38,108 nucleotides of DNA. Origin: a virus. The stretch lies in UHGV virus genome UHGV-2124252. One strand, 5' to 3'. The notes beneath the pieces were generated by a model. The model saw only the letters and a program-made list of their open reading frames with translations. It ran no database searches and was not told the DNA's origin. A program made the position numbers and the translations under genes. Below are positions 427 to 38,108 of this stretch, one piece after another; the first letter of the stretch is position 1, and each line of letters starts with the position of its first letter.

Positions 427-428
427 GA

Positions 429-506
429 TGATGCGCCGCGCGATAAATGCACTCTATCTTGTGCGATAAATGGCATCCACGCGGCGTTTCATTATTTGAA
501 AAAGAA
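429..506. repeat. Prophage terminal region with putative transposase-binding repeats
   Basis: Terminal TGATGCGCCGCGCGATAAATGC resembles the Mu attR terminal site as remembered (TGAAGCGGCGCACGAAAAACGC); direct repeats GCGATAAATG at 440-449 and 463-472 and related GCGGCGTTTCA at 481-491, located between host junction and gin stop. Confidence 0.5.
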
Positions 507-1079
507 TTACATTTCAGGTTGCGTTATGACAGTCCCAACAGGGTGATAGCGGTAGATCGTTGACAGTCCAATATCATAGATAATTGCCAGCCGCTTTCTG
601 TCATACCCTTTCTGGAGCAATCTTGCGATCTGCTCATGCTGCTCCTTCGTCAGTTTCGGGCGACGCCCTCCAACTCTTCCTTGTGATCGCGCAGCAGCCA
701 GTCCTGCCAGCGTGCGCTCAACTATCAGTTCACGCTCCATTTCTGCCAGTGCACCCATCATATGAAAAAAGAACCTTCCCATCGGAGTGCTGGTATCGAT
801 TGAATCCGTCAGACTGCGAAAATTGACACCTTTTGCGCGTAGCTCTTCTGTGAGAGCAATGAGGTGTTTCATTCTTCTACCCAACCGATCCAGCTTCCAG
901 ACCACCAATGTATCCCCTCTTTTAAGGCACTTTAAAGCGCGTTTCAGGCCTGGTCGTTCCGACTTGGTTCCGCTCATTTTGTCCTCAAAAATCTGTTCAC
1001 ATCCTGCGCACATTAATGCATTGCGTTGCAAATCTGTGTTTTGGTCATTTGTTGACACACGTATGTAGCCAATCAGCAT
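507..1079 (-). CDS. gin: Serine DNA invertase, Gin/Hin/Cin/Pin family
   Basis: MLIGYIRVSTNDQNTDLQRNAL...GDTLVVWKLDRLGR...FFFHMMGALAEMERELIVERT..., resolvase catalytic Ser motif and C-terminal HTH; ATG at 1079; adjacent to invertible tail-fibre cassettes. Confidence 0.93.
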   Translation of the reverse strand: MLIGYIRVSTNDQNTDLQRNALMCAGCEQIFEDKMSGTKSERPGLKRALKCLKRGDTLVVWKLDRLGRRMKHLIALTEELRAKGVNFRSLTDSIDTSTPMGRFFFHMMGALAEMERELIVERTLAGLAAARSQGRVGGRRPKLTKEQHEQIARLLQKGYDRKRLAIIYDIGLSTIYRYHPVGTVITQPEM

Positions 1080-1133
1080 TAAAAATACTCCCTTTTGAGT
1101 GGTTAAAGTACTGAGATAATGTGGGGAGGATTT

Positions 1134-1159
1134 GAGAGATAAACGTTGGTTTGGGGGAA
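1134..1159 (+). other. gix-like recombination site A (26 bp, 12-2-12)
   Basis: Right half GGTTTGGGGGAA (reverse complement TTCCCCCAAACC fits gix/hix half-site pattern TTnnCnnAAACC), central TT; starts ~150 bp of sequence identical to sites B and C. Confidence 0.55.
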
Positions 1160-1654
1160 GGCTCGGCGCTGCCCGTTGGTGTACCTGTTCCGTGGCCCAC
1201 TGCCACACCGCCAGCAGGCTGGTTAAAGTGCGACGGGCGCGCCTTTACAAAAGAACAATATCCTGTTCTGGCCAGAGCCTACCCGACCCTCCGCCTGCCT
1301 GATTTACGCGGTGAATTTATTCGTGGTTGGGATGATGGGCGAGGGGTTGATACGAGGCGTTCATTGCTAAGTGGTCAGACTGCAACATTTATTCGTACAG
1401 CTTTGCAGGATTATTACGGTGTCGATCTGACTACTAATGTCAAAGTAGGTATCGCTTATGCTACTGCTGATTCTGTTATAACTGTTGGAAACCCTGCTAA
1501 TCCTAAAGCAGGAGATAATAGCGATTATGTTCCAGCATCATCAGATAACTCCATAACAGGCACTCAAAGGACGGCAGAGGATAATTTTACCGGGGCATGG
1601 ATATCAATGCGCCCCCGCAATGTTGCTTTTAATTACATCGTAAGGGCCGCATAA
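1151..1654 (+). CDS. Alternative tail-fibre C-terminal cassette 1 (promoterless, currently not fused to fibre gene)
   Basis: ORF begins inside crossover site, no ATG/RBS; N-terminal 63 aa identical to C-terminal domain start of active fibre (GEGSALPVGVPVPWPTATPPAGWL...), variable middle, conserved end ...RPRNVAFNYIVRAA. Confidence 0.7.
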   Translation: MGEGSALPVGVPVPWPTATPPAGWLKCDGRAFTKEQYPVLARAYPTLRLPDLRGEFIRGWDDGRGVDTRRSLLSGQTATFIRTALQDYYGVDLTTNVKVGIAYATADSVITVGNPANPKAGDNSDYVPASSDNSITGTQRTAEDNFTGAWISMRPRNVAFNYIVRAA

Positions 1655-1673
1655 AAACGTTGGTTTGGGGGAA
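1648..1673 (+). other. gix-like recombination site B
   Basis: Same core as site A (AAACG TT GGTTTGGGGGAA), direct orientation relative to A. Confidence 0.55.
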
Positions 1674-2138
1674 GGCTCGGCGCTGCCCGTTGGTGTACCG
1701 GTTCCATGGCCCACCGCCACACCGCCAGCAGGCTGGTTACAGTGCAACGGAGCTACGTTCACCAAAGAACAATATCCTGTTCTGGCCAGAGTCTACCCGA
1801 CCCTCCGTCTTCCCGATTTACGCGGTGAGTTTATCCGTGGATGGGACGACGGGCGCAAGATTGACGAGGGGCGTAAGTTGCTTTCATGGCAGAAAGGTAC
1901 ACTGGTCGGCGGTCATGACGATAACGATTCTGCGCTTGATATCTCGTACATGAGTAACGGAAATAATATTGACTATGGCGGCGATAAGGTGTTTGCGGGG
2001 AATTACCGTAGCGATTATTTGTGGTACGCAATGCTGGGTGGAACAAACAGTCGCGCAAAAGCCGAATTAAACGGAGCATTCTTTAACATAACCCGCCCCC
2101 GCAATATCGCGTTTAACTATATCGTGAGGGCGGCGTGA
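1665..2138 (+). CDS. Alternative tail-fibre C-terminal cassette 2 (promoterless)
   Basis: Same conserved N-terminal 60 aa and C-terminal ...RPRNIAFNYIVRAA as cassette 1 and the active fibre, different central region. Confidence 0.7.
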   Translation: MGEGSALPVGVPVPWPTATPPAGWLQCNGATFTKEQYPVLARVYPTLRLPDLRGEFIRGWDDGRKIDEGRKLLSWQKGTLVGGHDDNDSALDISYMSNGNNIDYGGDKVFAGNYRSDYLWYAMLGGTNSRAKAELNGAFFNITRPRNIAFNYIVRAA

Positions 2139-2144
2139 TACCGT

Positions 2145-2759
2145 TCAACTGGCAAGTGCCAGTGGCGCTTCCGGCCAGCTGATTTCAGGTGCCGTGCTGA
2201 TATCCAGTGCGTTCAGCTCGTCGATATAATCCAGCACGGCGTTCAGTTTTGCCGTTTCTTCTGGTTTCAGACTGCGACCTGCCCGCAGTTTGAGGTTGAT
2301 GAGGTCGATGGACTTCATCGCCTGATCCACCCGTTTCTGGCGTTGCAGTCTGGCAGTCTCCAGCTCTGCGGTTCGCTGCCGTTCAGTATCGGTTACCCAC
2401 GCCTCACCGTTCCAGGTATCCCATGGCGTGGCTGGCTGTTTTGTGGTGGTGTCCGCCGGGTAATCACCCGGTTGGGTAATCAGAACGGGGTTACCGTTCT
2501 CCGTGCTGTATACCGTCTCGCCGCGGTGATCAGGCACATGCTCCCACCCGTTCAGCGTGGCAGTCCGGCAAACCACGTAACCCGAAATTGCCTCCGGCGG
2601 TGCATCGGCGCACGAATGTGCCGGAGTACCCACCCCAAGGGCGAGATACTCCACAGAGGATGAGGTGTATTCCCGGGTTTCCTCGTCATAGTGATATACA
2701 GTGATCTCGCCCGCTACAGTGGCGATACCGTTTTCATCCAGAACTGCAGTGTTACTCAT
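2145..2759 (-). CDS. Tail fibre assembly protein (Mu U / P2 G / lambda Tfa family)
   Basis: 204 aa, immediately downstream of fibre gene with overlapping TAATG; C-terminal region typical of Tfa chaperones (...KSIDLINLKLRAGRSLKPEETAKLNAVLDYIDELNALDIS...). Confidence 0.8.
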   Translation of the reverse strand: MSNTAVLDENGIATVAGEITVYHYDEETREYTSSSVEYLALGVGTPAHSCADAPPEAISGYVVCRTATLNGWEHVPDHRGETVYSTENGNPVLITQPGDYPADTTTKQPATPWDTWNGEAWVTDTERQRTAELETARLQRQKRVDQAMKSIDLINLKLRAGRSLKPEETAKLNAVLDYIDELNALDISTAPEISWPEAPLALAS

Positions 2760-4282
2760 TAAACTGCCCTCACAATGTAATTAAGTGCAATGCTACGGGG
2801 TCTGACAGTGATACCCTTCGCATACCCGCTTCTGATAGAGGTCAGAATAGTAGCCTGCATACCATTGTCTGACATTGCCACGACAGGATCGCTGAATGTT
2901 GTCCCGTCCGGCATTTTAAAGCTGCCCTCACGAAGGTCTGTAATGGAATCTTCATTGTTGAATCCCATGCCGACTATCCCCGAGGTTCCCGTAGTGTCCT
3001 GGTTATAATAATCCAGCATTGCTGTTCTTAACAGCGTTGCCCCTTGTGCGGACAGCAACTTACGTCCTGTATCAACTTTGCGCCCGTCGTCCCATCCACG
3101 GATAAACTCACCGCGTAAATCGGGAAGACGGAGGGTCGGGTAGGCTCTGGCCAGAACAGGATATTGTTCTTTTGTAAAGGCGCGCCCGTCGCACTTTAAC
3201 CAGCCTGCTGGCGGTGTGGCAGTGGGCCACGGAACAGGTACACCAACGGGCAGCGCCGAGCCTTCCCCCAAACCAAGGTAATTGAGGACATCTTTTATAC
3301 TGCCCTTAGCGATAATAGCGCGACCAATAGCTGTAAGGGTTGCCAGCGCTGCGCGGTCTGCTCCGGTAAAATAAGGCAACCGATCTGCTGCAGTGGCAAG
3401 TCCTGCCAGAGCAGTGAGCGTGGCATCTGCCGGTTGTTTTCCGTTTGCCAGATCGTATGCAGCCTTGACCGCTTTCGGTGTGGCGGCCAGTATTTCAGAC
3501 GTGCTGTTGATGGCACTGCTCAATTGTACGGTGCCTTTTGCCGTCAGCGAGGCAGCAGGCACTCCCGTTATCTGACTCCACGGGTGAGTGTGGCTGACGG
3601 GCGCCTTGCCGGCTGCAAGGTCGTATGCAGCCTTGACCGCCTTCGNNNNNNNNNNNNNNNNNNNNNNNNNNNNNNNAAGGTCGTATGCAGCCTTGACCGC
3701 TTTCGGTGTGGCGGCCAGCGTTTCAGACGTGTTGTTGATGGCACTGCTCAGTTGTACGATCCCTTTACGGGTCGTTGTTGCATCCTGGGCTGTGTATTTT
3801 CCCCGGGCCAGATCATACGCGATTTTCACAGCCTTCGGCGTGGCAGCCTCAGTTTCTGATTGACTGTCCGTGGCGCTGCTCAGTTGTACGGTGCCTTTTG
3901 CCGTCAGTGAAGCCGCAGGCACTCCCGTTATCTGACTCCACGGGTGAGTGTGGCTGGCAGGCGCCTTGCCGGCTGCCAGGTCGTATGCAGCCTTGACCGC
4001 TTTTGGTGTGGCGGCCAGCGTTTCAGAGGTGCTGTTGGTGGCACTGCTCAGTTGGGTGAACCCCTTAGCTGTCAGTGTCGCGTCCGGGTGGTTACGGGAA
4101 CGTACGTGTTCAGCCAGTGACTGTGCGGCTTCCTCCGTTTTCTTCTTCAGCCATTTCGTCCTGTTTGCCAGTTGCCGGGGGGCTCGATTTGATATCCCGT
4201 CTGCACCACCCAGAACCGGATCTGATGTCTCCAGTTGATAGATATTTTCTTCCCACTTTTCTGTTTCATTCAGGTTTCCCAT
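2759..4282 (-). CDS. Tail fibre protein (Mu S / P2 H-like), contains 31-N assembly gap
   Basis: About five tandem ~58-aa repeats (ATPKAVKAAYDL...HTHPWSQITGVPAASLTAKGTVQLSSA...), C-terminal cassette after crossover site C; ATG at 4282 preferred over TTG at 4288. Confidence 0.85.
   Translation of the reverse strand: MGNLNETEKWEENIYQLETSDPVLGGADGISNRAPRQLANRTKWLKKKTEEAAQSLAEHVRSRNHPDATLTAKGFTQLSSATNSTSETLAATPKAVKAAYDLAAGKAPASHTHPWSQITGVPAASLTAKGTVQLSSATDSQSETEAATPKAVKIAYDLARGKYTAQDATTTRKGIVQLSSAINNTSETLAATPKAVKAAYDLXXXXXXXXXXXKAVKAAYDLAAGKAPVSHTHPWSQITGVPAASLTAKGTVQLSSAINSTSEILAATPKAVKAAYDLANGKQPADATLTALAGLATAADRLPYFTGADRAALATLTAIGRAIIAKGSIKDVLNYLGLGEGSALPVGVPVPWPTATPPAGWLKCDGRAFTKEQYPVLARAYPTLRLPDLRGEFIRGWDDGRKVDTGRKLLSAQGATLLRTAMLDYYNQDTTGTSGIVGMGFNNEDSITDLREGSFKMPDGTTFSDPVVAMSDNGMQATILTSIRSGYAKGITVRPRSIALNYIVRAV
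3263..3288 (-). other. gix-like recombination site C (inverted relative to A and B)
   Basis: ttcccccaaacc aa ggtaattgagga on plus strand; lies at the constant/variable boundary of the expressed fibre gene (…LNYLGL|GEGSALP…). Confidence 0.55.
3646..3676. other. Assembly gap (31 N) inside tail-fibre repeat array
   Basis: Run of N flanked on both sides by the same repeat unit (aaggtcgtatgcagccttgaccgc). Confidence 0.95.
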
Positions 4283-4284
4283 AA

Positions 4285-4863
4285 TCAACTGCTCCCGTGG
4301 TTATAACTGCCATCATGGATGGCTGTATTGTTATAGCGAATGGCCACAGACTGATACTCCAGGCTGGCCAGATGGCAGCGGGCCGGTGCAAATGCAGCCA
4401 GCGTCTGACGCAGCATCGCGGCCTGATCGTTAGTAATGGGCTGTTTCAGAATAACGCGATAAACTGCCCAGGCGGCTGCATCTCCATGAACAAACAGTCC
4501 GTTATAGCTGCGATTGCCGTCGTAACTGAGACGACCTGTGCCTTCAATCAGATCCACTTCACCAAAGCCAAAACGGCGGATAACTTCCCGGATTGACCAC
4601 GGCGTCCCTTTATACCGGTGCAGTTCGATGGCTGCTTTTATAAGCATGCGGCGAACATCGTCCGATTCCGCCAGCTCCCAGCCATCGCCAGACAGTGAGA
4701 ACTGCTCGCCCAGCCATGGCAGCGCGGAACTGTCGACGATATCGACGAGAAAGACCATCAGTACGCTCAGGTCGATGTTATCCAGCCGTCCTGCCAGTCT
4801 TCCCAGCGTCCTGAGACTGATATCACCCTCAAGCGGTGGCGGGAGTTGTAATGGCTCAGTCAT
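4285..4863 (-). CDS. Baseplate protein, P2 gpI-like (Mu gp48 position)
   Basis: 192 aa, ATGA overlap with next gene, position between J-like and fibre. Confidence 0.7.
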   Translation of the reverse strand: MTEPLQLPPPLEGDISLRTLGRLAGRLDNIDLSVLMVFLVDIVDSSALPWLGEQFSLSGDGWELAESDDVRRMLIKAAIELHRYKGTPWSIREVIRRFGFGEVDLIEGTGRLSYDGNRSYNGLFVHGDAAAWAVYRVILKQPITNDQAAMLRQTLAAFAPARCHLASLEYQSVAIRYNNTAIHDGSYNHGSS

Positions 4864-6297: not shown

Positions 6298-6351
6298 GGG
6301 GGCAGTATTGCCCCCGTGCGGGAACGCTGATATTAAAGGCGTTTAAAAAGC

Positions 6352-8299: not shown

Positions 8300-9183
8300 C
8301 ACACACTCCTCGTCAGTATTCTGGCGGCCATTGCACTTAATCCCGGAGACATGCGGTTGAATGCTGTGCCGACGGCGTTAAGCTGCCCGGAAACGGTATC
8401 CAGAGCACCTGCAATATTTCTTTTGTCCACACCACTCAGCGCAGACTGTGCCTGCTGTACATACGTGGCTGCTTCGCTGGCTGTTCTGGCCAGACTGATG
8501 GCATCGGGCATGGATTCAGAGAGTGCGTTAAACGCCGGAACACTTTTCCCCAGAGCCCCGGAGATATTACCCAGTCCGCTCATCAGCCCCGGCACACGGG
8601 TCAGTGCGACAACGGGGTTATCCTTCATTTTCTGTGTCACCCGAACGGCGCTGATAGTGGTCTGGAGTACAGACTGCGCCTGTTTCGCATAGTTGACGCC
8701 GTTGCGGATGAACTGCGCCACCCCGGAAGGTGAAGGAATGGCACCGGAGACCGCCCCGACACCCGGGAGCTTCGTGCGTATTGCCGGTGGTTGCAGAGGA
8801 TTTTTCGGGTCACCGGTGTATTCCCGGAGAGACACGGTGGCACTGACAGCCAGCACGTTGCCGGTACTGTCAGTCTGCTCGCTGGTTGCAGTCACATCGG
8901 TAATCACGAACCAGCCGCGATAGTCACCGTTGCCGAAGACCAGCGCCAGTGCCTGATGGGCTTTCATGGCTGTTCGCAGTCTCGCCAGCTCCACATCGGG
9001 TACACAATAATGCTGATGGAAAACCAGAGTTATCTGGATTTCGTCCAGCCTGTCGCCGACGAACTGCAGGCCAGGCTTACCCCCGATGCGGGCATGCTCC
9101 GCATAATCGACGCCGAACGTGGCCTCGAAGCCGTCCCAGTAGGTAATCAGCTCAAACTCAATATCACCCAGTACGGCAAACAT
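8299..9183 (-). CDS. Tail protein, P2 gpU-like N-terminal domain (Mu DNA-circularisation protein N region)
   Basis: 294 aa directly downstream of tape measure gene with ATGA overlap; N-terminal pattern similar to gpU family. Confidence 0.55.
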   Translation of the reverse strand: MFAVLGDIEFELITYWDGFEATFGVDYAEHARIGGKPGLQFVGDRLDEIQITLVFHQHYCVPDVELARLRTAMKAHQALALVFGNGDYRGWFVITDVTATSEQTDSTGNVLAVSATVSLREYTGDPKNPLQPPAIRTKLPGVGAVSGAIPSPSGVAQFIRNGVNYAKQAQSVLQTTISAVRVTQKMKDNPVVALTRVPGLMSGLGNISGALGKSVPAFNALSESMPDAISLARTASEAATYVQQAQSALSGVDKRNIAGALDTVSGQLNAVGTAFNRMSPGLSAMAARILTRSV

Positions 9184-28369: not shown

Positions 28370-28400
28370 ACAAAACCGGAAAGCACAATGCTTTCCGGTA
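28370..28400. terminator. Rho-independent terminator between convergent dam-like and repressor genes
   Basis: ccggaaagc acaat gctttccgg; on minus strand followed by TTTTGTTT. Confidence 0.6.
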
Positions 28401-28484
28401 AACCAAACAACTTCCACTATGTCACTGGCGATGTTTTCTGAAAGCATCCAGATCAACCACCTGTCCTTTGTGTCCAGGTCAAAA

Positions 28485-28823: not shown

Positions 28824-28847
28824 GTGAGTTTTTCTGCACTCTTTAAG

Positions 28848-28876
28848 TTGACTGGTGAGGTAATCTGCACCATAAT
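28848..28876 (+). promoter_or_regulatory. Candidate early promoter (sigma70-like)
   Basis: TTGACT (28848-28853), 17-bp spacer, CATAAT (28871-28876) upstream of Cro/Ner-like gene; flanked by repeated TCTGCAC motifs. Confidence 0.5.
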
Positions 28877-28923
28877 CTATCACACATAAGGCAAACATCA
28901 TTGCATCAACAAAGGAGACAACG

Positions 28924-29112
28924 ATGACTGCAGAACAAGTCAAAGCTCTCTTCCGCCAGCGCGGGATCACTTTCACCCGCTGGGCAGAAGAAAACGGCTA
29001 CAACCGCAATGAGGTATACCGCGTTCTCAATGGGCAGACCAAAGCCCGTTACGGTAAATCCCATGAAATCGCCGTGAAGTTGGGGCTGAAATCAACAGCT
29101 CAGGCAGCCTGA
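28924..29112 (+). CDS. Small Cro/Ner-like DNA-binding regulator (first early gene)
   Basis: 62 aa, AAAGGAG RBS, basic helix-turn-helix-like core; divergent from repressor. Confidence 0.65.
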   Translation: MTAEQVKALFRQRGITFTRWAEENGYNRNEVYRVLNGQTKARYGKSHEIAVKLGLKSTAQAA

Positions 29113-29164
29113 AGATTTTGAGTCTTTGTAAAAGGTTATCACATATCGCAAAAGAGGTATGCAG

Positions 29165-29473
29165 ATGAGTAAGACGAATGTTTCAAGCTCCGGCAGTCGC
29201 ATCCTCCGGGTACTCAAAGCGCTGCGCGGTCATGCCCTGAACGGTATTTCCAACGGTGAACTGGCGGCAGCACTGCACGAGTCACCGGCAAACATCAACC
29301 GGGCACTCAACACCCTCATTGAAGAAGGGTTGGCCCTGAAACTGGAAAACGGGCGTTTCGCGCCGGGCATCCAGTTACTGCAGATCGCTATGGCCCACAG
29401 TAACGAGATGGCACGTGCACAGGATCGCATTAACGAAATCAACCAACGTGTCATTTCAGGTAGTCGTTTGTAA
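29165..29473 (+). CDS. Winged-helix-like putative regulator
   Basis: 102 aa from ATG 29165 (AAGAGG RBS). Confidence 0.5.
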   Translation: MSKTNVSSSGSRILRVLKALRGHALNGISNGELAAALHESPANINRALNTLIEEGLALKLENGRFAPGIQLLQIAMAHSNEMARAQDRINEINQRVISGSRL

Positions 29474-29483
29474 GGAGTAATAA

Positions 29484-30395
29484 ATGGGACGCACCAAATC
29501 ACCGATTAACACTGAACTGAACGCCGAGGTACCGCTGTCGGATGATCTCAATGTCAGTCTGAACGCCATGACACAGCATCGTATGGAGATCATGCAGCAG
29601 TTTGGCGATGGTCAGCCCTATGAGCGTGATCGCATAGTTCATGAGGCTCGGTTTTATATGGCACAGAGCGCTGAGGCCATGCTGGAAGCAGGTAAACGAC
29701 TTATTATTCTCAAAGAAAATGAACCTCACGGGGACTTTGTTGGAATTGTAGAAGAACAACTTGGTCTGCATGTGCGCGCAGCACAACGAATGATGAAAGC
29801 ATCTTTGAAATACCTTTCACCAAAACTAGAGCCAAAAGCGACAACGTTGTCGCTTTTAGGTAAGGCAAAATTATTTGAACTTGTTGCTGAAGATGACGAC
29901 GACCTTGCTGAACTGGCCGGCGGTGGCACAGTTGCCGGACTGACGCTTGACGATGTTGATCGCATGTCAGTACGTGAATTGCGTCAGGCCCTGCGCGAAG
30001 CGCGCGAAACCAACGCAGCACAACAGCGCGTACTCGCCGACAAAAATGAAAAAATAGACTCACTCTCCACCAGACTGGAGAAGAAATCCCGTATTCAGCC
30101 GCCTGAGCCTGATGAAGAGGTTAAGAAGCTGCGGGCGGAAGTGACAGCATTAGCGGTTGAGGCGGAATCTGCTATCGCCGTTCGACTGTCCAGCGCTTTT
30201 GAGACGCTGTGCGCATATTGTGCTGAAAACATGATTGATACCCCCAGAGACTTCATGGCAGGCCTGGTCTGTCAACTGGAAAGCACAGCGCGTAGCCTGC
30301 GCTCCACATTTGACCTGCCGGATGAGCCAACAGGCAATGCCGCGCCTTCATGGCTGACTGAGCCGACGCCACAGATTAACGGGCTGGAGGCATAA
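29484..30395 (+). CDS. Hypothetical early protein
   Basis: 303 aa, acidic coiled-coil centre, immediately upstream of transposase. Confidence 0.55.
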   Translation: MGRTKSPINTELNAEVPLSDDLNVSLNAMTQHRMEIMQQFGDGQPYERDRIVHEARFYMAQSAEAMLEAGKRLIILKENEPHGDFVGIVEEQLGLHVRAAQRMMKASLKYLSPKLEPKATTLSLLGKAKLFELVAEDDDDLAELAGGGTVAGLTLDDVDRMSVRELRQALREARETNAAQQRVLADKNEKIDSLSTRLEKKSRIQPPEPDEEVKKLRAEVTALAVEAESAIAVRLSSAFETLCAYCAENMIDTPRDFMAGLVCQLESTARSLRSTFDLPDEPTGNAAPSWLTEPTPQINGLEA

Positions 30396-30398
30396 CCA

Positions 30399-32168
30399 AT
30401 GAATGCTGCCCTGACTGAACGACTGGTTTATGTCGCCCGCGCGGCACGTGACGCGGGGCATGGTAAACGCGGTGCAATATACGACGCTGCCTGTGCTGAA
30501 CTTGGCATGTCCCGCGCCACTCTGCTGCGCAGGCTGAAGGAGGTCTCTGTGACTGATAAACGCAAAAAACGCGCTGATGCCGGACGCAGCGCCCTGACCC
30601 GCGACGAAGCCGCGCTGATATCTGCCACACTGCGTGAGGCCACCCGCAAGAACGGTAAACGCCTCTATTCCATCGCAGATGCAGTGGAAACCCTGCGGGC
30701 TAACGGCTTTATCACCGCAGGCAGAACAGATGAAACCACCGGTGAGTTTTTCCCGTTGTCTGAAGATGCCATCAGCCGTGCTCTGCGTAACTATGGCCTG
30801 CACCCGGAACAACTGGATGCTCCTGCACCGCATACCGAAGTGGCCAGTCTGCACCCCAATCATGTCTGGCAGATTGACGCCTCACTCTGCACGCTTTACT
30901 ACCTGAGCAATGGACATAAAGGGCTGCAGGTGATGGACAGCGCGAAGTTCTACAAGAACAAGCCCGCTAACCTTGCCCGTATCGCCAGTGACCGCGTGTG
31001 GAGTTACGAGATTACCGACCATGCCAGCGGCTGGATTTACGTTGAGTATGTGACGGGCGCGGAATCAGGTGAGAACCTGTGTTCTGTGCTTATCAACGCC
31101 ATGCAGGAGCGTGGCGGCGCAGACGTGCTGCACGGCGTGCCAAAAATACTCTATCTCGACCCCGGCTCGGCAAACACCGCGGGTATGACGAAAAACATGT
31201 GCCGCTCACTGGGCATCGACCTGATAGCGCACAAGCCGCATAACGCCCGCGCCACCGGACAGGTGGAAAAGGCGCGGGACATTATCGAACGCAAGCTGGA
31301 GCCGGGTCTGAAGTTCCGGCCGGTTCACAGTCTGGAAGAACTCAATGCGCTGGCCGCGAAATGGCGCAGCCACTTTAACGCCACGGCTGTTCACAGCCGC
31401 CACGGTAAAACCCGCACGGATATCTGGCTGAAGATTACTGCTGAGCAGCTGAAAAAAGCGCCTTCCGTTGAGGTATGTCGTGAACTGGCTGTGGCGGCAC
31501 CAGAACTCCGCAAAGTCACGCCAAAACTTCGTGTCTCGTTCCGGGGCACTGAATTTGACGTATCAACGGTACCGGGCGTACTGGTCGGTGAAAAACTGAT
31601 GATTACCCGTAACCCGTGGCGCAGCGATGTGGCACAGGTGGTTCTGACCGGTGAGGACGGCCACGAGACGTTCTTCCTGGTCGAAGAAGTCAGAAAGAAC
31701 GAGTTTGGCTTTGCTGAAGGCGCGGCGGTATTTGGCGAAAGTTACAAAGCCCTGCCGGAAACCCCGGCGCAGATGGCGGCAAAAGAAACCGAAGCGCTGG
31801 TCACCGGTACAGACAACGCCGCAGATGCAGCTGCCGCACGCAAGGCGAAGGCGCTGCCGTTCGGCGGGCGGCTTGACCCATATAAACATATTGATGACGC
31901 CACACTTCCGGCCTATATGCCGAAGCGAGGTCAGGCCTCTGACGTACGCGGGCCGCGCACTGAACAACGTCCCATGACTCATGTGGAGGCCGCGAAAGCC
32001 CTGCGCGATAAGTTCAGCGCCGACGGCCTTACCTGGACGCCGGAACATTACCGCCAGTTAACGGCACAGTATCCGGACGGCGTACCGGAAGCCGCACTGG
32101 ATGAAGTCATGGCCACGCTGACCACGCCGGCCCGCAGCAGCGTTATCAGCATTGTTAACGGCAACTGA
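30399..32168 (+). CDS. DDE transposase A (Mu A / TnsB / TniA family core)
   Basis: 589 aa; N-terminal HTH, catalytic core beginning HVWQIDAS; followed by ATPase partner gene. Confidence 0.88.
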   Translation: MNAALTERLVYVARAARDAGHGKRGAIYDAACAELGMSRATLLRRLKEVSVTDKRKKRADAGRSALTRDEAALISATLREATRKNGKRLYSIADAVETLRANGFITAGRTDETTGEFFPLSEDAISRALRNYGLHPEQLDAPAPHTEVASLHPNHVWQIDASLCTLYYLSNGHKGLQVMDSAKFYKNKPANLARIASDRVWSYEITDHASGWIYVEYVTGAESGENLCSVLINAMQERGGADVLHGVPKILYLDPGSANTAGMTKNMCRSLGIDLIAHKPHNARATGQVEKARDIIERKLEPGLKFRPVHSLEELNALAAKWRSHFNATAVHSRHGKTRTDIWLKITAEQLKKAPSVEVCRELAVAAPELRKVTPKLRVSFRGTEFDVSTVPGVLVGEKLMITRNPWRSDVAQVVLTGEDGHETFFLVEEVRKNEFGFAEGAAVFGESYKALPETPAQMAAKETEALVTGTDNAADAAAARKAKALPFGGRLDPYKHIDDATLPAYMPKRGQASDVRGPRTEQRPMTHVEAAKALRDKFSADGLTWTPEHYRQLTAQYPDGVPEAALDEVMATLTTPARSSVISIVNGN

Positions 32169-32178
32169 GGAGGGATAC

Positions 32179-33345
32179 ATGCTGGTACTGAAGCAGCAAC
32201 TGAAAGAGGCCCGTATTCCACAGGCGGTGGTGGCGAGAGCTGTCGATGTTTCTGAGGCCACGCTGGCCCAGATTGTGAATCATAACGCGTGGCCCCGCAC
32301 CAGCCCCGGAGAAGTGCGCCGGCGTCTTGCGTCCTGGCTGGAAAGTCAGGGGATTGATACAACGAAGAGTTTTGATGCTGTACAGGGCGCAGCCACGCCC
32401 CGTACAGCGGGTACCACAGATAAAACGAGCCTCAGTGAGGAAGAGAATATGTTACTCAAAAAACAGGTGTTATTTCCAGCAACCAAAAAAGCGTTTGGTC
32501 TTTTCCGTGACCCGTTCGCCGATGAAGCCATGCAGGGTTCTGATGATGTGTTCACCACCCCGGACATTCGCTACGTGCGTGAGGCGTTGTACCAGACAGC
32601 CCGTCATGGTGGGTTTATGGCCGTCATCGGTGAGTCCGGTGCGGGTAAATCCACGCTGCGCCGCGACCTGACTGAACGTATCAACCGCGAGAATGCGCCG
32701 GTAATTGTTATCGAGCCATACATCATCGCTATGGAAGACAACGATGTGAAAGGGAAAACCCTGAAGGCAGCAGCGATTGCCGAAGCCATTATCAGTACCA
32801 TCGCACCACTGGAAAGCATCAGACGCAGTCAGGACGCCCGCTTTCGCCAGTTGCATCGCGTCCTGAAAGACAGCAGCCAGGCGGGGTTCAGCCACGTTTT
32901 GGTGATTGAGGAGGCCCACAGTCTGCCCATTCCGACACTGAAACACCTCAAACGCTTTTTTGAGCTGGAGTCCGGTTTCAAAAAACTGCTGTCCATCGTG
33001 CTGATTGGCCAGCCGGAACTGGCGACAAAACTGTCTGAACGCAATATGGAAGTCCGTGAAGTCGTTCAGCGTTGTGAGGTGGTCGAACTTCTGCCTCTGG
33101 ACAATAACCTTGAAGAATTTCTGACGTTCAAACTGCAACGGGCCGGTAAACAACTGACGGACATTATGGACGCCAGCGCAGTGGATGCCATACGTGCCCG
33201 CCTGAGCAATCCGGGAAGTCATCGTAAAAATATGGTCAGCCTGCTGTATCCGCTGGCCGTCAGTAACCTGGTGATAGCCGCCATGAATCTGGCCGCTGAA
33301 ATCGGGGTTCCACAGGTCAACGCTGACGTTGTCAAAGGGGTTTAA
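32179..33345 (+). CDS. Transposition ATPase B (Mu B / TniB-like AAA+)
   Basis: Walker A GESGAGKST, Walker B-like HVLVIEEAH; start ATG 32179 with GAGGAGGG RBS. Confidence 0.85.
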   Translation: MLVLKQQLKEARIPQAVVARAVDVSEATLAQIVNHNAWPRTSPGEVRRRLASWLESQGIDTTKSFDAVQGAATPRTAGTTDKTSLSEEENMLLKKQVLFPATKKAFGLFRDPFADEAMQGSDDVFTTPDIRYVREALYQTARHGGFMAVIGESGAGKSTLRRDLTERINRENAPVIVIEPYIIAMEDNDVKGKTLKAAAIAEAIISTIAPLESIRRSQDARFRQLHRVLKDSSQAGFSHVLVIEEAHSLPIPTLKHLKRFFELESGFKKLLSIVLIGQPELATKLSERNMEVREVVQRCEVVELLPLDNNLEEFLTFKLQRAGKQLTDIMDASAVDAIRARLSNPGSHRKNMVSLLYPLAVSNLVIAAMNLAAEIGVPQVNADVVKGV

Positions 33346-33347
33346 TA

Positions 33348-33617
33348 ATGAAATCCACCACAGGTATCAACCAGCAAATCAGCAAAGTGCAGTCAGCCAT
33401 TATGGCGCTTAAGGCGACGAACACGGATGTACAAAGCATCACCATCAGGGGTAACAAACCTGTCATCCGCGTTTCCCGGAGTGCGCATTGCATGCGCATG
33501 CTTGAGCAGGGAAAGGCCTGTTATCTGTATACCGGACATGACCAAAGGGGATATTTCCGTCAGGGCGTTTTCGAACTGCACGGCTGTCGCGTCGTGTGGC
33601 CGGAATCTTTGTGGTAA
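33348..33617 (+). CDS. Hypothetical early protein
   Basis: 89 aa, RBS AGGGG. Confidence 0.5.
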   Translation: MKSTTGINQQISKVQSAIMALKATNTDVQSITIRGNKPVIRVSRSAHCMRMLEQGKACYLYTGHDQRGYFRQGVFELHGCRVVWPESLW

Positions 33618-33644
33618 TCAGCACAACAGGAGGAGTCATAAAAT

Positions 33645-34175
33645 ATGGCAAAAAGTACAAAAGGGGCAAAACGTATCAAAGCCGCAGCAGCACTCTGGGT
33701 GCCGGGGACACGCGAAGAGGTCATTGAGGGAATCAGACTGCTTGGTGACGCGCAACGTGAACTGGTCAGGGCTGAAACAGAAATGAATGACACCATTGGC
33801 GACATCACTGCACGTTATGCCCCGCTCACCGAGAGCCTGAAAAAACGCATGACCGAACTGCAGTCCGGTATCCAGACATGGTGTGAGGCGCACCGTGATG
33901 AACTGACCGGCAACGGGAAGGTGAAGTTCGCTAACCTCACCACCGGCGAGGTGCAGTGGCGAAACCGTCCGCCGTCAGTCAGCATTCGCGGGGCGGATAA
34001 TGTCATTGAACTGCTGAGACGTCTGGGGCTTGAGCGCTTTATTCGTGTAAAGGAGGAAATAAATAAAGATGCCATTCTGAATGAAAAAGAGGCTGTGAAA
34101 AATATTCCCGGTATTACCATAAAAAGTGATATTGAGGATTTTTCAATAATTCCTTTTGAGCAGGATGTGCAGTAA
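33645..34175 (+). CDS. gam: Host-nuclease inhibitor Gam (Mu Gam-like)
   Basis: MAKSTKGAKRIKAAAALWVP... and C-terminal ...DFSIIPFEQ closely resemble Mu Gam as remembered. Confidence 0.85.
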   Translation: MAKSTKGAKRIKAAAALWVPGTREEVIEGIRLLGDAQRELVRAETEMNDTIGDITARYAPLTESLKKRMTELQSGIQTWCEAHRDELTGNGKVKFANLTTGEVQWRNRPPSVSIRGADNVIELLRRLGLERFIRVKEEINKDAILNEKEAVKNIPGITIKSDIEDFSIIPFEQDVQ

Positions 34176-34272
34176 ACACACCACGTTAATTATTTAATAA
34201 AAACATTTTCTTTTTTATTCCGGTGTCAGCGCCGTGGGCTTCTGCACGCCGGAAACAGAGGAGAATTAAATT

Positions 34273-34467
34273 ATGATATTTAAATGTATTCAGTGCGAGA
34301 GGGATATAACAGCCCTGCGTTTTCACAGCGCCATCGCCGTGATGTCCGGTAAGTATCACATACCTGCAGTACGTGTCACCCTTGTCTGCCCGTACTGCAG
34401 CCAGCATTTTTCGGCGGACGTGCCCGTCATGGAATTCTCCCGCCCTGACAGGGAGGACGCGCAATGA
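34273..34467 (+). CDS. Small zinc-ribbon-like protein
   Basis: CxxC ... CxxC (C5,C8,C39,C42); GAGGAG RBS. Confidence 0.5.
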   Translation: MIFKCIQCERDITALRFHSAIAVMSGKYHIPAVRVTLVCPYCSQHFSADVPVMEFSRPDREDAQ

Positions 34468-34736
34468 TTACCCCACAGGAAGCACGACAGCGCACCCGAA
34501 CCCTTGTTGAACACTATGTCAACGAGTGTGAATGCCGCGACCTCACCGATGTGAAGCACGTCCTGACGGCGCTAATCAGCATGGCCACACAGGCCATTGT
34601 GGCGACCAACGGAAAGGAGGCTGCCCTGCAGGTACTGATGAACACACTCACCCACACGGCAGAGCATGAGGTGCCGTACCGGATGGAAACCACTGCAGAA
34701 GGCGGCCTGCACATCACCGTCAGCCGGAAGCACTGA
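34464..34736 (+). CDS. Hypothetical early protein
   Basis: 90 aa, ATGA-coupled. Confidence 0.45.
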   Translation: MITPQEARQRTRTLVEHYVNECECRDLTDVKHVLTALISMATQAIVATNGKEAALQVLMNTLTHTAEHEVPYRMETTAEGGLHITVSRKH

Positions 34737-34745
34737 GGGCGCGGC

Positions 34746-35042
34746 ATGACACGAAACACCGAACTCACCCGCACCGCCCTCTACCGTCTGGCCCTGCAGC
34801 GTTTCGGGCCGGACGCACAGGCCCTGAAACTGGCAGAAGAGGCCGCTGAACTGGCGGCCAGTGCCGCCCGCAACCTGAACGGACAGGGCAGCGAAAGTGA
34901 CCTCGCGGCAGAGCTGGCAGACGTGGAAATCATGACAGAGCAACTGCGCCTTCAGGGGATGGACCGGCTGATTGACTTCCACAAACAGAAAAAACTGGAA
35001 CGTCTGGCTGCACGACTGGGTGTGATTTACACGAACGAGTAA
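34746..35042 (+). CDS. MazG-like nucleotide pyrophosphohydrolase-like small protein (tentative)
   Basis: EExxE ... ExxD-type acidic helices (LAEEAAELA ... ELADVEIM). Confidence 0.4.
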   Translation: MTRNTELTRTALYRLALQRFGPDAQALKLAEEAAELAASAARNLNGQGSESDLAAELADVEIMTEQLRLQGMDRLIDFHKQKKLERLAARLGVIYTNE

Positions 35043-35056
35043 CCGGGAGGCATTCA

Positions 35057-35272
35057 ATGGCTGACATACTCAGGGAAATCACCGCATGGATACTGATTCT
35101 TACTGGCCTGGCGACATGCCTCAGTGCGGGGGCAGCCCTGGCTGCCCTGCTGATGCACATAACAACACAGTGGTTATGGGAAAAGCTTAAAGCAGCATAC
35201 AGCCTGAAAGAGCTGTCCGACGCTGTCCGGGCATGGAAACGGCAGAAAAATACCGGAGATACAGAACAATGA
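35057..35272 (+). CDS. Small membrane protein
   Basis: 71 aa with one hydrophobic helix; GGGAGG RBS. Confidence 0.5.
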   Translation: MADILREITAWILILTGLATCLSAGAALAALLMHITTQWLWEKLKAAYSLKELSDAVRAWKRQKNTGDTEQ

Positions 35273-35952
35273 CAGACCAGAATAAACACATTGAGAAACT
35301 GAAAAAGTTGCTGGCGCTGGCCGCATCCGGCAACCCGCACGAGGCCGCTCTGGCACTGCGCCGAGCCCGTAAACTGATGGATGTTCACGGCATCACACAT
35401 TCCGACATTGCTATGAGTGATATTGATGAAACCATCAGTCATTACTGGCCGACAGGCAGTCTCCGTCCACCGCGCTACATGCTGGGCCTGATGAACATCA
35501 TCCGCGAGGCATTTGGTGTTAACTCCATCATTCACCCCGGCACGCATCAGTCTGTGGGGTTCTACGGCAACCGGGAACGTACGGCACTGGCTGCATACAC
35601 CTGGGAAGTGCTGGCCCGTCAGCTGAAAAAGGCGCGTCAGCAGTATATCAGTGCACAGAACAAAAGAATAAAAACCGCCACCCGCACCAGCCGTGGAGAC
35701 CAGTTTGCCGAAGGCTGGGTGCTGGCCGTTATCAGTGAAATACAGTCCTTCGCCCTGACCGATGACGAACGTGAACTGATGCAGCAGTGGCTGGAACATA
35801 AATACCCGCAGACGCAAACCACCAGGGCGCGTAAACCGGGAAGAAGCCGCAATGGCGACGCCTCGCGCTATGCGGGGTTTCGTGAAGGGCAGAACGTCAG
35901 ACTGCACCGCCCGGTCAGTGGGCAGGAACAACAGAAACTGGAGGCCAGATGA
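35269..35952 (+). CDS. Hypothetical early protein (DUF2786-like N-terminus)
   Basis: MTDQNKHIEKLKKLLALAASGNPHEAALALRRARKLM... ; ATGA overlap with upstream gene. Confidence 0.55.
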   Translation: MTDQNKHIEKLKKLLALAASGNPHEAALALRRARKLMDVHGITHSDIAMSDIDETISHYWPTGSLRPPRYMLGLMNIIREAFGVNSIIHPGTHQSVGFYGNRERTALAAYTWEVLARQLKKARQQYISAQNKRIKTATRTSRGDQFAEGWVLAVISEIQSFALTDDERELMQQWLEHKYPQTQTTRARKPGRSRNGDASRYAGFREGQNVRLHRPVSGQEQQKLEAR

Positions 35953-36179
35953 TTACGCTATCAGGTAAAAGCCGGAAATTAAAAGCCTGCCGAATATCTG
36001 CCAGATACCTTTTTGCCCGCGCCTTTTTTAAGAACGTCAGGCCGGGGATCACAATTGGTGTTATTGCCGGACGCGAACAGGTTGAAAAATACATGTCAGG
36101 TGCATGGTGGAATAACGACCCTGTCATTGCTGCCCGTAATATTCATATCGAATGGGGAGGTATTCAGAATGACTACTGA
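35949..36179 (+). CDS. Hypothetical small protein
   Basis: 76 aa, ATGA-coupled. Confidence 0.4.
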   Translation: MITLSGKSRKLKACRISARYLFARAFFKNVRPGITIGVIAGREQVEKYMSGAWWNNDPVIAARNIHIEWGGIQNDY

Positions 36180-36375
36180 AACCATTGTCTGTTTTCTTTT
36201 CTGGTATATGTACGCAGGATCATGCAGCGCAAGACTTCATCGTTCCCTGGGCTATGGCAGGCACTACGACACCGCGCATTACATCCTGTACATGACCGCC
36301 GTCATGTTGTTCTGGCCAGTCACCCTGCCAGCTGCAACCGACATTGTTGCCGACAGACTGAAAAAAAGGAGATGA
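36169..36375 (+). CDS. Small membrane protein
   Basis: 68 aa, two hydrophobic helices, GGAGG RBS. Confidence 0.45.
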   Translation: MTTETIVCFLFWYMYAGSCSARLHRSLGYGRHYDTAHYILYMTAVMLFWPVTLPAATDIVADRLKKRR

Positions 36376-36376
36376 T

Positions 36377-36826
36377 ATGCAGAAAAAACGCCTGATACAG
36401 CTTATCCATATTGCCCGTAATGAACTGGGTATGGATGAAGACACCTACCGCCAGATGTTACAGGGGCTGACCGGTAAAGCCTCAACCAAAGGAATGGATA
36501 CCACACAACTAAACTGCGTGCTGGAATCCATGAAAAAGAAAGGCTTTCGCGTTAAACCAGCCAGAAAAGCCAGCTCCGGTTTACCGCTTGATAACCATCC
36601 GCAGTCCAGGAAAATTCGTGCGCTATGGCTTGAAATGGCTGCTGCCGGCATTGTTCGTGACCGTTCAGAAAATGCATTAGCGAGGTGGATCAAGCGGGAA
36701 ACGGGCATCATTGCCCTGCGCTGGCTCAGTACTGAACAGGCAAGCAGTGTTATTGAGAAACTGAAGAAGTGGCAGCGCAGAGCTGCGGGAGTCAAACATG
36801 AGCGACCTGAATCAGTTTCGAAGTAA
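36377..36826 (+). CDS. GemA-like regulatory protein (Mu gp16 family)
   Basis: MQKKRLIQLIHIARNELGMDEDTYRQML... typical N-terminus of Mu gp16/GemA family. Confidence 0.7.
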   Translation: MQKKRLIQLIHIARNELGMDEDTYRQMLQGLTGKASTKGMDTTQLNCVLESMKKKGFRVKPARKASSGLPLDNHPQSRKIRALWLEMAAAGIVRDRSENALARWIKRETGIIALRWLSTEQASSVIEKLKKWQRRAAGVKHERPESVSK

Positions 36827-37196
36827 GGGGCCGGAACTCCTGGTGGAACTGGCACAGCATACCTCTGAGACCGTTCGCGAGATTATTGATATTGAGCCCG
36901 AAGTTGCCGACCAGATTGGTCAGGCCGTCGCGAACCGAATGATGCAGGTCTGGGGCGGGCAAAACGTTTATTTTCCTATGGGCATGGTATGGAAGGTCAG
37001 TCAGCGCGACCGGGAAATCTTCAGGGAGTTTAACGGACGCAACCACCACGAACTGGCCCGCAAGTTTGGTGTTTCGCTTCAGTGGGTCTACAGCGTGGTT
37101 AAGCGGGTCAGAAAAGAAGAACTGGATCGGATGCAGGGCAGGTTGTTTGATGAAGATCTGCCAGAGGAGACGAAAGACGTTAACAAATCCAGATAA
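36798..37196 (+). CDS. mor: Mor/C-family transcription activator
   Basis: ...GGQNVYFPMG...REIFREFNGRNHHELARKFGVSLQWVYSVVKRVRK matches Mor family C-terminal HTH. Confidence 0.8.
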   Translation: MSDLNQFRSKGPELLVELAQHTSETVREIIDIEPEVADQIGQAVANRMMQVWGGQNVYFPMGMVWKVSQRDREIFREFNGRNHHELARKFGVSLQWVYSVVKRVRKEELDRMQGRLFDEDLPEETKDVNKSR

Positions 37197-37239
37197 TTCC
37201 TGCTTGTTAAAGTCCTTTCAAAAATCTCCTTATTGTATA

Positions 37240-37272
37240 AAAGCACGGTAGACCCCTTACCGTGCTTTTTTT
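37240..37272 (+). terminator. Rho-independent terminator after mor-like gene
   Basis: aaagcacggta gacccct taccgtgcttt followed by TTTTTTT. Confidence 0.75.
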
Positions 37273-37309
37273 ATGCTCTCTCTTTAGTATTCAGGATGCA
37301 GGGAGAAAA

Positions 37310-37943
37310 TATGTTTGACGTTTCGTTGTTAAATCTGCCATGGGCAACACTGGTGACCCTGACCAGTGGCTATATTGGGTATTTTATTGCGAATGTGGGA
37401 CTGAAGGATCACCACAAGCCCATTGAGGTGACTTTTTCTTCGCTGATTTTTGGCCTGACAGCAATGATGGCTTACCAGGCTGTTATGTGGGCAGGTCTGA
37501 ATGCCTGGCTGGCAACACCACCAGCACTTCTGTGTGCCGTTACATGCGGTGCGTGGTGGCGCAGGTACGGTCGCAAATGGATGTACAGATTACTGTGGAA
37601 TAATGATATTTCATGGTCTGACGATACCAGCTCAGCATGGCAGGCAATGTTTGATCAAACAGGCTTCAGCGTTACCGAGGTCAGAGTGATTCTTCGCGAT
37701 GGTTCCGGTATGATGTCACGACTGCCAGGGAACTTTGAAGAGTGGCCTAACGGTCCGTTTACCCTGGGGAATAAAGGCGATATGGTTCTTTACGTCACGC
37801 ACAGCAGCCCTTCAGGCAGTAACGAATGGGAAGAGTATAAAGGCGTGGTTGATAAGTACTGGGGAGCTCTGGCAACCTATATTCCAGCAGATCAGATTGC
37901 CAGAGTGGAGATCAGGCGCGTTCGTGCGACGAACGATGAATGA
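37310..37943 (+). CDS. Membrane protein (3 N-terminal TM helices + soluble C-terminal domain), function unknown
   Basis: 211 aa from ATG 37310 with AGGGAG RBS, after terminator. Confidence 0.6.
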
Positions 37944-37946
37944 TGT

Positions 37947-38108
37947 TTATTTTTTCCCTGGAGCAGGGGCTGCCGGCATAGTGGTTTTATTGGCAGAGGA
38001 AGACGATTCTCCTTTTCTACCGGAATCGCGCTCGAACGTCACGATGTGCTTGCTTTTGGGCTTTTCTGAGTAATCAAGGCTGTCATGCTTATTGTTTTGA
38101 GTAGTCAT
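37947..38108 (-). CDS. Partial ORF at window edge (at least 53 codons; start may lie beyond window)
   Basis: Minus-strand frame open from right edge to TAA at 37947-37949; hydrophilic Ser/Lys-rich. Confidence 0.25.
   Translation of the reverse strand: MTTQNNKHDSLDYSEKPKSKHIVTFERDSGRKGESSSSANKTTMPAAPAPGKK

Follow-up and report, generated by a model that had tools for sequence, protein, structure and literature searches.

The divergent early and late operons of a transposable prophage in Escherichia coli ssuB most likely reflect the conserved BcepMu/B3-type architecture and not a rearranged Mu

Does a Mu-like prophage whose early and late operons are transcribed away from each other represent a rearranged Mu, a combination of two elements, or a phage type with an architecture of its own? 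This question is raised by the virus genome UHGV-2124252, a stretch of 38,108 nucleotides, which was analysed over its full length and is called the window below. In Mu and D108, the repressor gene c is located at the left end and the early, middle, and late genes are encoded on one strand, and the first-pass annotation of the window had rightly pointed out that its gene order is different. Most likely (with a probability of about 0.93), the window represents one intact BcepMu/B3-type transposable myovirus prophage of about 37.9 kb, which was inserted by transposition into ssuB of Escherichia coli, and the divergent blocks are the ancestral and conserved architecture of phages with a Tn552-family rve transposase and an ExeA-like ATPase and not the result of a rearrangement of Mu. 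This reading is built on homology, synteny, termini, target duplications, and motif positions, which were determined directly.

Based on the list of open reading frames (ORFs) and the annotation of the prophage copy in strain ZH063 by the Prokaryotic Genome Annotation Pipeline (PGAP), 30 consecutive genes are encoded on the minus strand, from the holin gene (25594-25944) down to the tail-fibre assembly gene (2145-2759). They are opposed by 16 consecutive genes on the plus strand, which start with a helix-turn-helix (HTH) gene of 62 amino acids (28924-29112) and end with Mor (36798-37196). Two further ORFs follow Mor before the end of the window (37311-37943 on the plus strand and 37947-38108 on the minus strand). 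Pfam agrees with the assignments of all the named genes, which are gin, Dam, repressor, rve transposase, AAA_22 ATPase, Gam, GemA, Mor, and holin. Thus, the two operons as delimited by the first-pass annotation (25944 down to 2145 on the minus strand and 28924 to 37196 on the plus strand) are transcribed apart, and the repressor, the Dam methylase, and an accessory locus, which consists of three ORFs of unknown function, are indeed located between them. The central switch from which the operons were supposed to diverge needs to be qualified. There is a switch between the blocks, and the switch proper covers 28824-28923. However, the first candidate for a late promoter is found about 2.8 kb away (25969-26003), and because the repressor gene, Dam, and three ORFs of mixed orientation separate the two, the operons do not share a common divergent control region.

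The architecture was assessed by tblastn searches of all annotated BcepMu and Mu proteins against the window, as part of a synteny comparison that also included D108, B3, and D3112 and assigned the layout of the window to BcepMu and B3 and not to Mu, D108, and D3112. Matches were obtained for 37 of the 50 BcepMu proteins, which appear in exactly the reverse order with every strand relation preserved. BcepMu genes 01-16, which are encoded on the minus strand, correspond to 28927-37148 on the plus strand of the window, and the BcepMu plus-strand genes 17 and 21-52 are found on the minus strand from 28820 down to 4103. The identities amount to 69% for the transposase (gp09), 59% for the ATPase (gp08), 56% for Mor, 62% for the large terminase subunit TerL, 59% for the portal protein, and 76% for the sheath protein. 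In the BcepMu annotation, genes 1-16 are on the minus strand with Mor at the terminus, while genes 17-52 on the plus strand encode the repressor (gp17) and the lysis, head, and tail functions. The window phage similarly has two divergent clusters, of which the early one ends in Mor at the terminus, and it encodes an rve transposase with an adjacent ExeA-like ATPase instead of MuA and MuB. The two clusters of BcepMu, with the lysogeny control at their interface followed by a lysis cassette, have been described before (PMC2771037, Lavigne et al.), and gp09 has been placed in the Tn552/IS1604 transposase family (PMC2771037, PMC2628397). The resemblance to BcepMu-type phages, which had only been suggested in the first-pass annotation, is therefore borne out by this reversed collinearity.

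The same divergent layout is present in B3, whose early core is 54-66% identical to that of the window. The "B3/D3112-type" proposed as one group for comparison accordingly falls apart, because B3 shares the divergent layout but D3112 has the layout of Mu. To what extent the layout is linked to the transposase is seen in the wider set of phages. Tblastn searches retrieved 69 phage records for the transposase (from Pseudomonas, Burkholderia, Escherichia, Stenotrophomonas, Klebsiella, and Ralstonia, and two cyanophages) and 114 for TerL, and among the matches listed the two genes are on opposite strands in all 41 records found in both sets. Therefore, the divergent layout goes with the type of transposase and is not peculiar to the window.

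The relation to Mu is of a different kind. Only 11 of the 53 Mu proteins match, namely Gam (62% identity), GemA, Mor/C, TerL (49%), portal, F, G, gp47 (a weak match), a fragment of S, and Gin (77%). For the c, ner, A, and B proteins of Mu, no tblastn match was obtained in the window. The A, B, cI, and ner proteins of D3112 do not match either, apart from a match to A covering just 9%. The features by which a member of Muvirus would be recognised, which are the MuA-type transposase, MuB, c and ner at the left end, and the collinear transcription of one strand, are thus absent.

The ends of the element were determined by comparison with the closed genome of strain ZH063, in which ssuB is split by the same prophage. 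In the window, host DNA (a 3' fragment of ssuB) extends up to position 428, and the prophage covers everything from 429 to the last base of the window and another 196 bp beyond it, which gives the total of about 37.9 kb. The left junction in ZH063 reads host ...GCATCTCGA followed by TGATGCGCC..., and the right junction, 196 bp past the last base of the window, reads ...GTCTGATCA followed by TCTCGAGTC... The hexamer TCTCGA at 423-428, within the host ssuB gene, is the left copy of the target-site duplication, as the same hexamer flanks the far end in ZH063. The first-pass annotation had let the phage begin at 427, which has to be corrected to 429, and its equation of 427-38108 with the phage holds except for this start and for the second terminus outside the window. 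The element termini are of the TG...CA type (TGATG.../...TGATCA). The terminus at the tail-fibre end (429-472, plus strand) starts with TGATG and contains two 10-bp repeats GCGATAAATG at 440-449 and 463-472, which are putative transposase binding sites. Such repeats are present at positions 12-21 and 35-44 from both ends of the window phage and from both ends of BcepMu. Every end of these two phages begins with TGA, and the repeat can be written as G(C/A)GATA(A/T)(A/T)T. Even the end-specific details coincide with BcepMu, with GAGATA at the Mor end and CGCGCGATA at the fibre end.

Two more independent insertions with the same divergent layout were found in eamA of a chicken isolate and in adeP of a mouse isolate. 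All three insertions are flanked by perfect 6-bp duplications (TCTCGA, TTGGAC, and GCTGCA), and the terminal sequences are identical in all three. The window phage accordingly has TG...CA termini, short terminal repeats, and varied insertion sites with target duplication like the other members of the BcepMu-like group. For this group, TG...CA termini and the rve/Tn552-type transposase core of the BcepMu-related prophages were described with phage KS10 (PMC2628397), and BcepMu virions contain variable host DNA at both ends of the packaged DNA (PMC2771037).

These data allow weighing the other explanations of the layout. It could be supposed that the window contains a Mu-type collinear prophage, possibly a defective one, whose early region was recently inverted in this lineage. 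The Mu-type Gam (62%) and Gin (77%), GemA, Mor/C, and some of the head genes, all shared with Mu, would be in agreement with this. However, homologues of Mu A, B, c, and ner are missing, the transposase and the ATPase are of the BcepMu/B3 type, and among the matches listed the divergent layout is found in every phage with that transposase, across five host genera. In addition, termini and duplications are intact, the termini match those of BcepMu end for end, and a close relative, PhiKM, has been deposited as a phage record, although the record does not give evidence of how the phage was obtained. A recent inversion is thus highly improbable and was rejected because of the absent MuA, MuB, c, and ner and because of the universality of the layout with this transposase among the listed matches. 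Alternatively, two elements might be adjacent to each other, a remnant of a prophage with P2-like tail and head genes and a Tn552-like transposon carrying early genes of a phage. In favour of this, the order and the names of the tail genes are P2-like, and the transposase belongs to a transposon family. However, both blocks are enclosed by a single pair of terminal repeats and a single duplication, and internal copies of the terminal motif pair were not seen. Moreover, Mor on the early side and four matching motifs on the late strand would tie the two blocks together functionally, and the combination is conserved from Burkholderia to E. coli, so that we regard two adjacent elements as very unlikely. 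A mis-assembly or chimera joining two prophage fragments near 25950-28400, which the first-pass annotation had itself brought up and at which the lower guanine-plus-cytosine (GC) content at 27-29 kb (0.48-0.49 compared to about 0.58 in the late block) could superficially hint, was rejected as extremely improbable, because many closed chromosomes contain region 24500-30000 without interruption at 100% identity (of 5,426 complete E. coli genomes, 636 match it, 496 of them with at least 80% of the region at a single location), because one pair of matching termini and one 6-bp duplication bound the whole element at three chromosomal sites, and because the order across the junction is identical in BcepMu and B3.

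Several observations weigh against assigning the window to an intact BcepMu/B3-type prophage with the proposed control elements. The one-way nucleotide similarity (blastn identity times coverage) to BcepMu is only 0.185 (about 18%), compared to 0.87 to PhiKM, 0.62 to the Klebsiella phage clone KP12_2, and 0.023 to Mu, and 13 BcepMu genes do not have a counterpart in the window. Because of this low similarity and the absent genes, the window phage should be considered BcepMu-like in architecture but not a close congener of BcepMu. The demarcation criterion for genera is about 70% intergenomic similarity. With a value of 0.185 the window phage is far from the strict ICTV definition of Bcepmuvirus, and a megablast search did not find any Burkholderia phage. 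NCBI nevertheless files PhiKM under Bcepmuvirus. In addition, a consensus scan did not reveal a promoter for the repressor gene, and the patterns for late promoters and operators were derived from the same sites in which they were then counted, so that the chance statistics are partly circular. The weight given to the motifs therefore rests on their exclusive location, their fixed spacing, and their conservation in KP12_2 and BcepMu.

How the two blocks might be controlled can be deduced from the region between them. The repressor (28485-28823, minus strand) is an HTH_3 protein of the Cro/CI type and homologous to BcepMu gp17 and B3 ORF18, as determined by Pfam and tblastn. Repeat and sigma-70 scans of the adjoining region revealed a putative switch (28824-28876, plus strand) with two operator-like repeats (28824-28839 and 28855-28870) and a candidate early promoter, TTGACT-17-CATAAT (28848-28876, plus strand), within the 100 bp that separate the start of the repressor gene from the first early gene. 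This promoter is the sole 10-of-12 sigma-70 match within 25.5-29.3 kb. The repeats are two exact copies, 31 bp apart, of the imperfect palindrome GTGAG-N5-CTGCAC, which does not occur in any further exact copy in the window, and the second copy occupies the spacer of the early promoter. By its sequence, the switch would be a standard repressor/operator arrangement. A hairpin with an 11-bp stem (28375-28399) separates the convergent Dam and repressor genes and is likely a bidirectional terminator that would insulate the accessory and late side from transcription of the repressor gene. The operator region of Mu is located about 1 kb from its left end and doubles as a transposition enhancer; in the window phage the distance from the switch to the nearer end is about 9.4 kb.

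The early operon (28924-37196, plus strand), as annotated by PGAP, Pfam, and homology to BcepMu and B3, consists of 16 genes encoding a gp16-family HTH protein, an IclR-type winged HTH protein, a DUF3102 protein, the rve transposase (30399-32168), the AAA_22/ExeA-like ATPase (32179-33345), Gam (33645-34175), small ORFs, a DUF2786 protein, GemA (36377-36826), and Mor (36798-37196). The first gene belongs to TIGR04111 ("BcepMu gp16 family") with 97 bits against a cut-off of 34. In the transposase only the rve domain is detected by Pfam. Mor is the only Mor/C homologue encoded in the phage.

The late block (2145-25944, minus strand), as determined from the ORF list, PGAP, and the synteny to BcepMu, comprises 30 genes for holin, SLT endolysin, Rz/Rz1, TerS, TerL, portal, MuF, MuG, protease/scaffold, capsid, connectors, a P2-like tail (sheath, tube, tape measure, and gpU/X/D/V/W/J/I), fibre, and fibre assembly. 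It is collinear with BcepMu genes 21-52 at 29-76% amino-acid identity. All four intergenic gaps of this block contain a candidate late motif consisting of WTTAAWATC, 20 nucleotides, and AWRCTG. The 9-mer WTTAAWATC is present in exactly four copies in the window, all on the late strand and all in those gaps. The four candidate Mor-dependent promoters (all on the minus strand) are located upstream of the holin gene (25969-26003, TTTAAAATC-N20-ATGCTG), upstream of the protease/scaffold gene at the position of Mu P_I (18571-18605), upstream of the tail-chaperone and tape-measure genes (12654-12688), and upstream of gpW and the baseplate genes (6303-6337). PhiKM and KP12_2, the latter 85% identical, have retained these sites at homologous positions, and BcepMu has three equivalents, upstream of holin, gene 32, and gene 49, the latter two being homologous to the protease/scaffold and gpW sites, respectively. 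A sigma-70 consensus scan did not identify a promoter upstream of holin, which fits a dependence on an activator.

From these positions we infer the roles of promoter, operators, and Mor sites and the timing of the cascade as follows. In the lysogen, the HTH_3 repressor would bind the two 16-bp operators, one of them inside the spacer of the sigma-70 early promoter, and thereby switch off early transcription, while the hairpin 3' of the repressor gene and the genes on the opposite strand would stop repressor transcription from reaching the late genes located downstream on the same strand. Upon derepression, the early promoter would drive the 16-gene operon towards the terminus, with the gp16-family HTH protein in the position of Ner/Cro followed by transposase, ATPase, Gam, GemA, and others. 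The single Mor/C-family activator, as the product of the last early gene, would then act in trans on the four promoters of the opposite strand (WTTAAWATC-N20-AWRCTG), which precede the gene groups for lysis, head, tail, and baseplate. The simplest model thus has two tiers, an early operon ending in Mor and four late units activated in trans. Because early and late transcription would be coupled by a diffusible activator and not by read-through, the orientation of the early block should be irrelevant to the cascade.

Some features of the prophage do not concern its architecture. Between the blocks, the Dam-type N6-adenine DNA methyltransferase (27604-28368, plus strand) belongs to the D12 class according to Pfam. 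The accessory ORFs (26075-26818 on the plus, 26794-27198 on the minus, and 27197-27412 on the plus strand) match only PHROG families of unknown function, and searches of 26075-27412 with PADLOC, NCBIfam, and Pfam did not give any informative match. They hold the position of BcepMu gp18-20 but are not similar to these.

The window contains 109 GATC sites (2.9 per kb), none of which is located within 29958-36047. This GATC-free tract of 6,089 bp spans the 3' part of the DUF3102 gene, the transposase, the ATPase, Gam, and small early ORFs. Outside the tract the density is about 3.4 per kb, and a Poisson model predicts about 3e-6 gaps of this length. Other 4-bp palindromes have ordinary densities in the tract, except for CTAG, which is nearly absent from the entire window. 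Within the tract, aspartate codons preceding a codon that starts with C are GAC in 14 cases and GAT in one, compared to a ratio of 39:38 before other codons (Fisher p = 0.003), and isoleucine codons following a codon that ends in G are ATC in only 1 of 23 cases compared to 39% ATC overall (binomial p = 3e-4). At the level of sequence, this synonymous codon context shows an active avoidance of GATC. PhiKM and the copy of the chicken strain have conserved the tract, with 6.1 and 6.4 kb, respectively. In the copy of the mouse strain it is nearly conserved, with a single GATC in 6.4 kb, and KP12_2 retains a part of 3.9 kb. Long gaps are absent from BcepMu and B3, in which GATC occurs 8.3-8.7 times per kb and whose hosts, to our knowledge, lack Dam. 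Mu and D108, whose early regions are unrelated, have a parallel GATC-free tract of 4.1 kb, which begins within B and extends to where the semi-essential early region ends. A literature search did not find any report of a GATC-free early region in transposable phages, although much of the older Mu literature lies outside the search.

GATC sites also occur at the Mor end and at the repressor start. The Mor-end terminus (ZH063 locus 40333-40377) is TGATCA, and its two terminal repeats enclose a further GATC at positions 27-30; the fibre-end terminus is devoid of GATC. Another GATC (28818-28821) overlaps the start codon of the repressor gene and abuts operator O1. It is a speculation by analogy that, given the phage-encoded Dam, the sites at the Mor end and the repressor start could be methylation-sensitive as are those at the ends of IS10 and Tn5. 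As a tentative and rather doubtful explanation, transposable phages in Dam-positive hosts might have been selected to keep Dam-dependent host factors away from the early operon during rapid replicative transposition. Candidates would be SeqA, which binds hemimethylated DNA, MutH, and GATC-specific restriction, and the phage Dam near the switch and the GATC-bearing Mor-end terminus (TGATCA) might belong to the same adaptation. The GATC-free tract is the only unexpected feature of the prophage; it stands apart from the question of gene order and touches the Dam gene.

At the fibre end, a gin-type serine DNA invertase (507-1079, minus strand) with the Pfam domains Resolvase and HTH_7 is encoded, which is 77% identical to Mu Gin. 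Its position at the terminus had been listed among the differences from Mu; the position is correct but does not distinguish the two phages, because gin of Mu also follows the G segment at the fibre end. The invertase adjoins an invertible tail-fibre segment (1141-3281), delimited by repeat alignment and Pfam, which contains three crossover sites, two silent C-terminal cassettes with Collar domains, the expressed 3' end of the fibre gene, and the assembly gene (2145-2759, minus strand). The crossover sites were located by aligning the three repeat copies and are found at 1141-1161 and 1655-1675 on the plus strand and at 3261-3281 on the minus strand within the fibre gene. Each of them opens an inverted repeat of 226-229 nucleotides with 90-92% identity between the copies, and each copy starts with the Hin/Gin-like core AAACG/TTACC-TT-GGTTT. 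A search with the 26-mer gix consensus of Mu, allowing up to three mismatches, did not give a match. The silent cassettes (1151-1654 and 1665-2138, plus strand) are entered from the two plus-strand sites. In its sequence, the module with an invertase next to a segment that is bounded by inverted crossover sites in the fibre gene and offers alternative C-terminal cassettes would thus belong to the Gin/Hin/Cin/Pin type. With three crossover sites and two silent cassettes it is not a simple two-state G segment. Neither of the silent cassettes is accompanied by an assembly gene for the tail fibre, and the one at 2145-2759 would invert together with the segment. The mouse-strain copy entirely lacks gin and the invertible module. 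An Rfam scan of the whole window did not find any family at the gathering score.

The tail fibre has 643 amino acids in the otherwise identical ZH063 prophage compared to 509 in the window (2759-4288), and the tape-measure gene (9183-12134 in the window) is annotated as a truncated pseudogene in the ZH063 copy. These differences fit a shuffling of fibre cassettes or an exchange among co-resident prophages, as in a preprint on sequence type 131 (ST131), in which tail-fibre switching and a DNA invertase were reported for a Bcepmuvirus prophage ("Burkho_phiE255") (10.1101/2022.05.07.487787).

At the opposite end, Mor is followed by variable cargo (37311-38108), which comprises the two ORFs at 37311-37943 (plus strand) and 37947-38108 (minus strand) and precedes the Mor-end terminus (...TGATCA) 196 bp past the window. 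The ORFs code for 210 and 53 amino acids and match only PHROG families of unknown function, and PADLOC, NCBIfam, and Pfam did not give any informative match for 37311-38108. The prophage family is carried by about 640 of the 5,426 complete E. coli genomes, including ST131. Among 640 E. coli genomes that carry the family, just 115 share the segment after Mor, and the rest diverge directly 3' of Mor. The repressor alleles also differ, with 459 nucleotides in the mouse-strain copy (NZ_CP054662.1, 11976-12434), 348 in the chicken-strain copy, and 339 in the window, which suggests several immunity types within the family.

The gene order and the class of the prophage are already known, as the BcepMu/B3-type layout has been published (PMC2771037). 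The architecture therefore does not add anything new to phage biology and is mainly of use for annotation. Two architectural classes can be distinguished among the Mu-like prophages of E. coli and Klebsiella genomes. For the very common class to which the window phage belongs, BcepMu/B3 should serve as the reference for annotation; with Mu as the reference, the layout would look rearranged and the transposase gene misplaced. The transposition-type insertions inactivate the host genes ssuB, eamA, and adeP, with possible consequences for the phenotypes of the strains. Of all the features, only the GATC-free early operon might open a new question.

Among the known phages, PhiKM (PQ738613) is essentially the same phage with 87% one-way similarity and 96-99% identity over the aligned parts. 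Its record (PQ738613.1) is permuted and partial, with the fibre gene joined directly to the Mor-end cargo and no invertase annotated. A sequencing gap interrupts the tape-measure gene, and one of the cargo ORFs bears the implausible annotation of an Fe2+ ABC transporter permease. "Klebsiella phage KP12 clone KP12_2" (OM835952) is an about 85% identical variant of the same layout including the invertase, but it has another accessory region at the repressor side and lacks Gam. The record (OM835952.1) is filed under Vequintavirinae although its sequence is actually prophage-like, of the BcepMu-type transposable kind, and collinear with the window, and it probably represents prophage DNA of the host that was co-assembled with a lytic phage.

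BcepMu and phiE255 (Bcepmuvirus) share with the window phage the divergent clusters with the switch at their interface, the order of 37 genes, the Tn552-family rve transposase with the ExeA-like ATPase, the single Mor-family activator at the terminus, and the late block starting with holin, SLT endolysin, and Rz/Rz1. The Mu-like head module, the P2-like tail module, and the TG...CA termini are also common to them. Unlike BcepMu, the window phage encodes a Dam and a Mu-type Gam, and the two phages also differ in their small early genes and in the accessory ORFs located between repressor and holin. BcepMu does not encode Gin and an invertible segment and has the acyltransferase gp53 at that place (PMC2771037, PMC2628397). 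The differences from BcepMu are thus modular. B3 and the JBD25/JD18-type phages (Beetrevirus and allies) encode HTH, IclR-type HTH, DUF3102, transposase, and ATPase, and further on GemA and Mor, in the same order, and their other strand encodes the repressor and then the lysis cassette and the terminase. In the first 16 kb of B3, the part that was compared, neither gin nor Dam is annotated. The phages of the B3 group are siphoviruses. Mu, D108, and D3112 resemble the window phage in being transposable and temperate and in having TG...CA ends, a late activator of the Mor/C type, GemA, and Gam, and Mu additionally in TerL, portal, the head genes F and G, and the Gin/G-segment fibre switch at the fibre end. 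They differ in the repressor at the left end, in the collinear early, middle, and late genes on one strand, and in the MuA-type transposase with MuB. The target duplication of Mu is 5 bp long compared to the 6 bp measured for the window phage, and late transcription in Mu is reached by a two-step cascade of Mor and then C, in place of which the window phage has a single activator.

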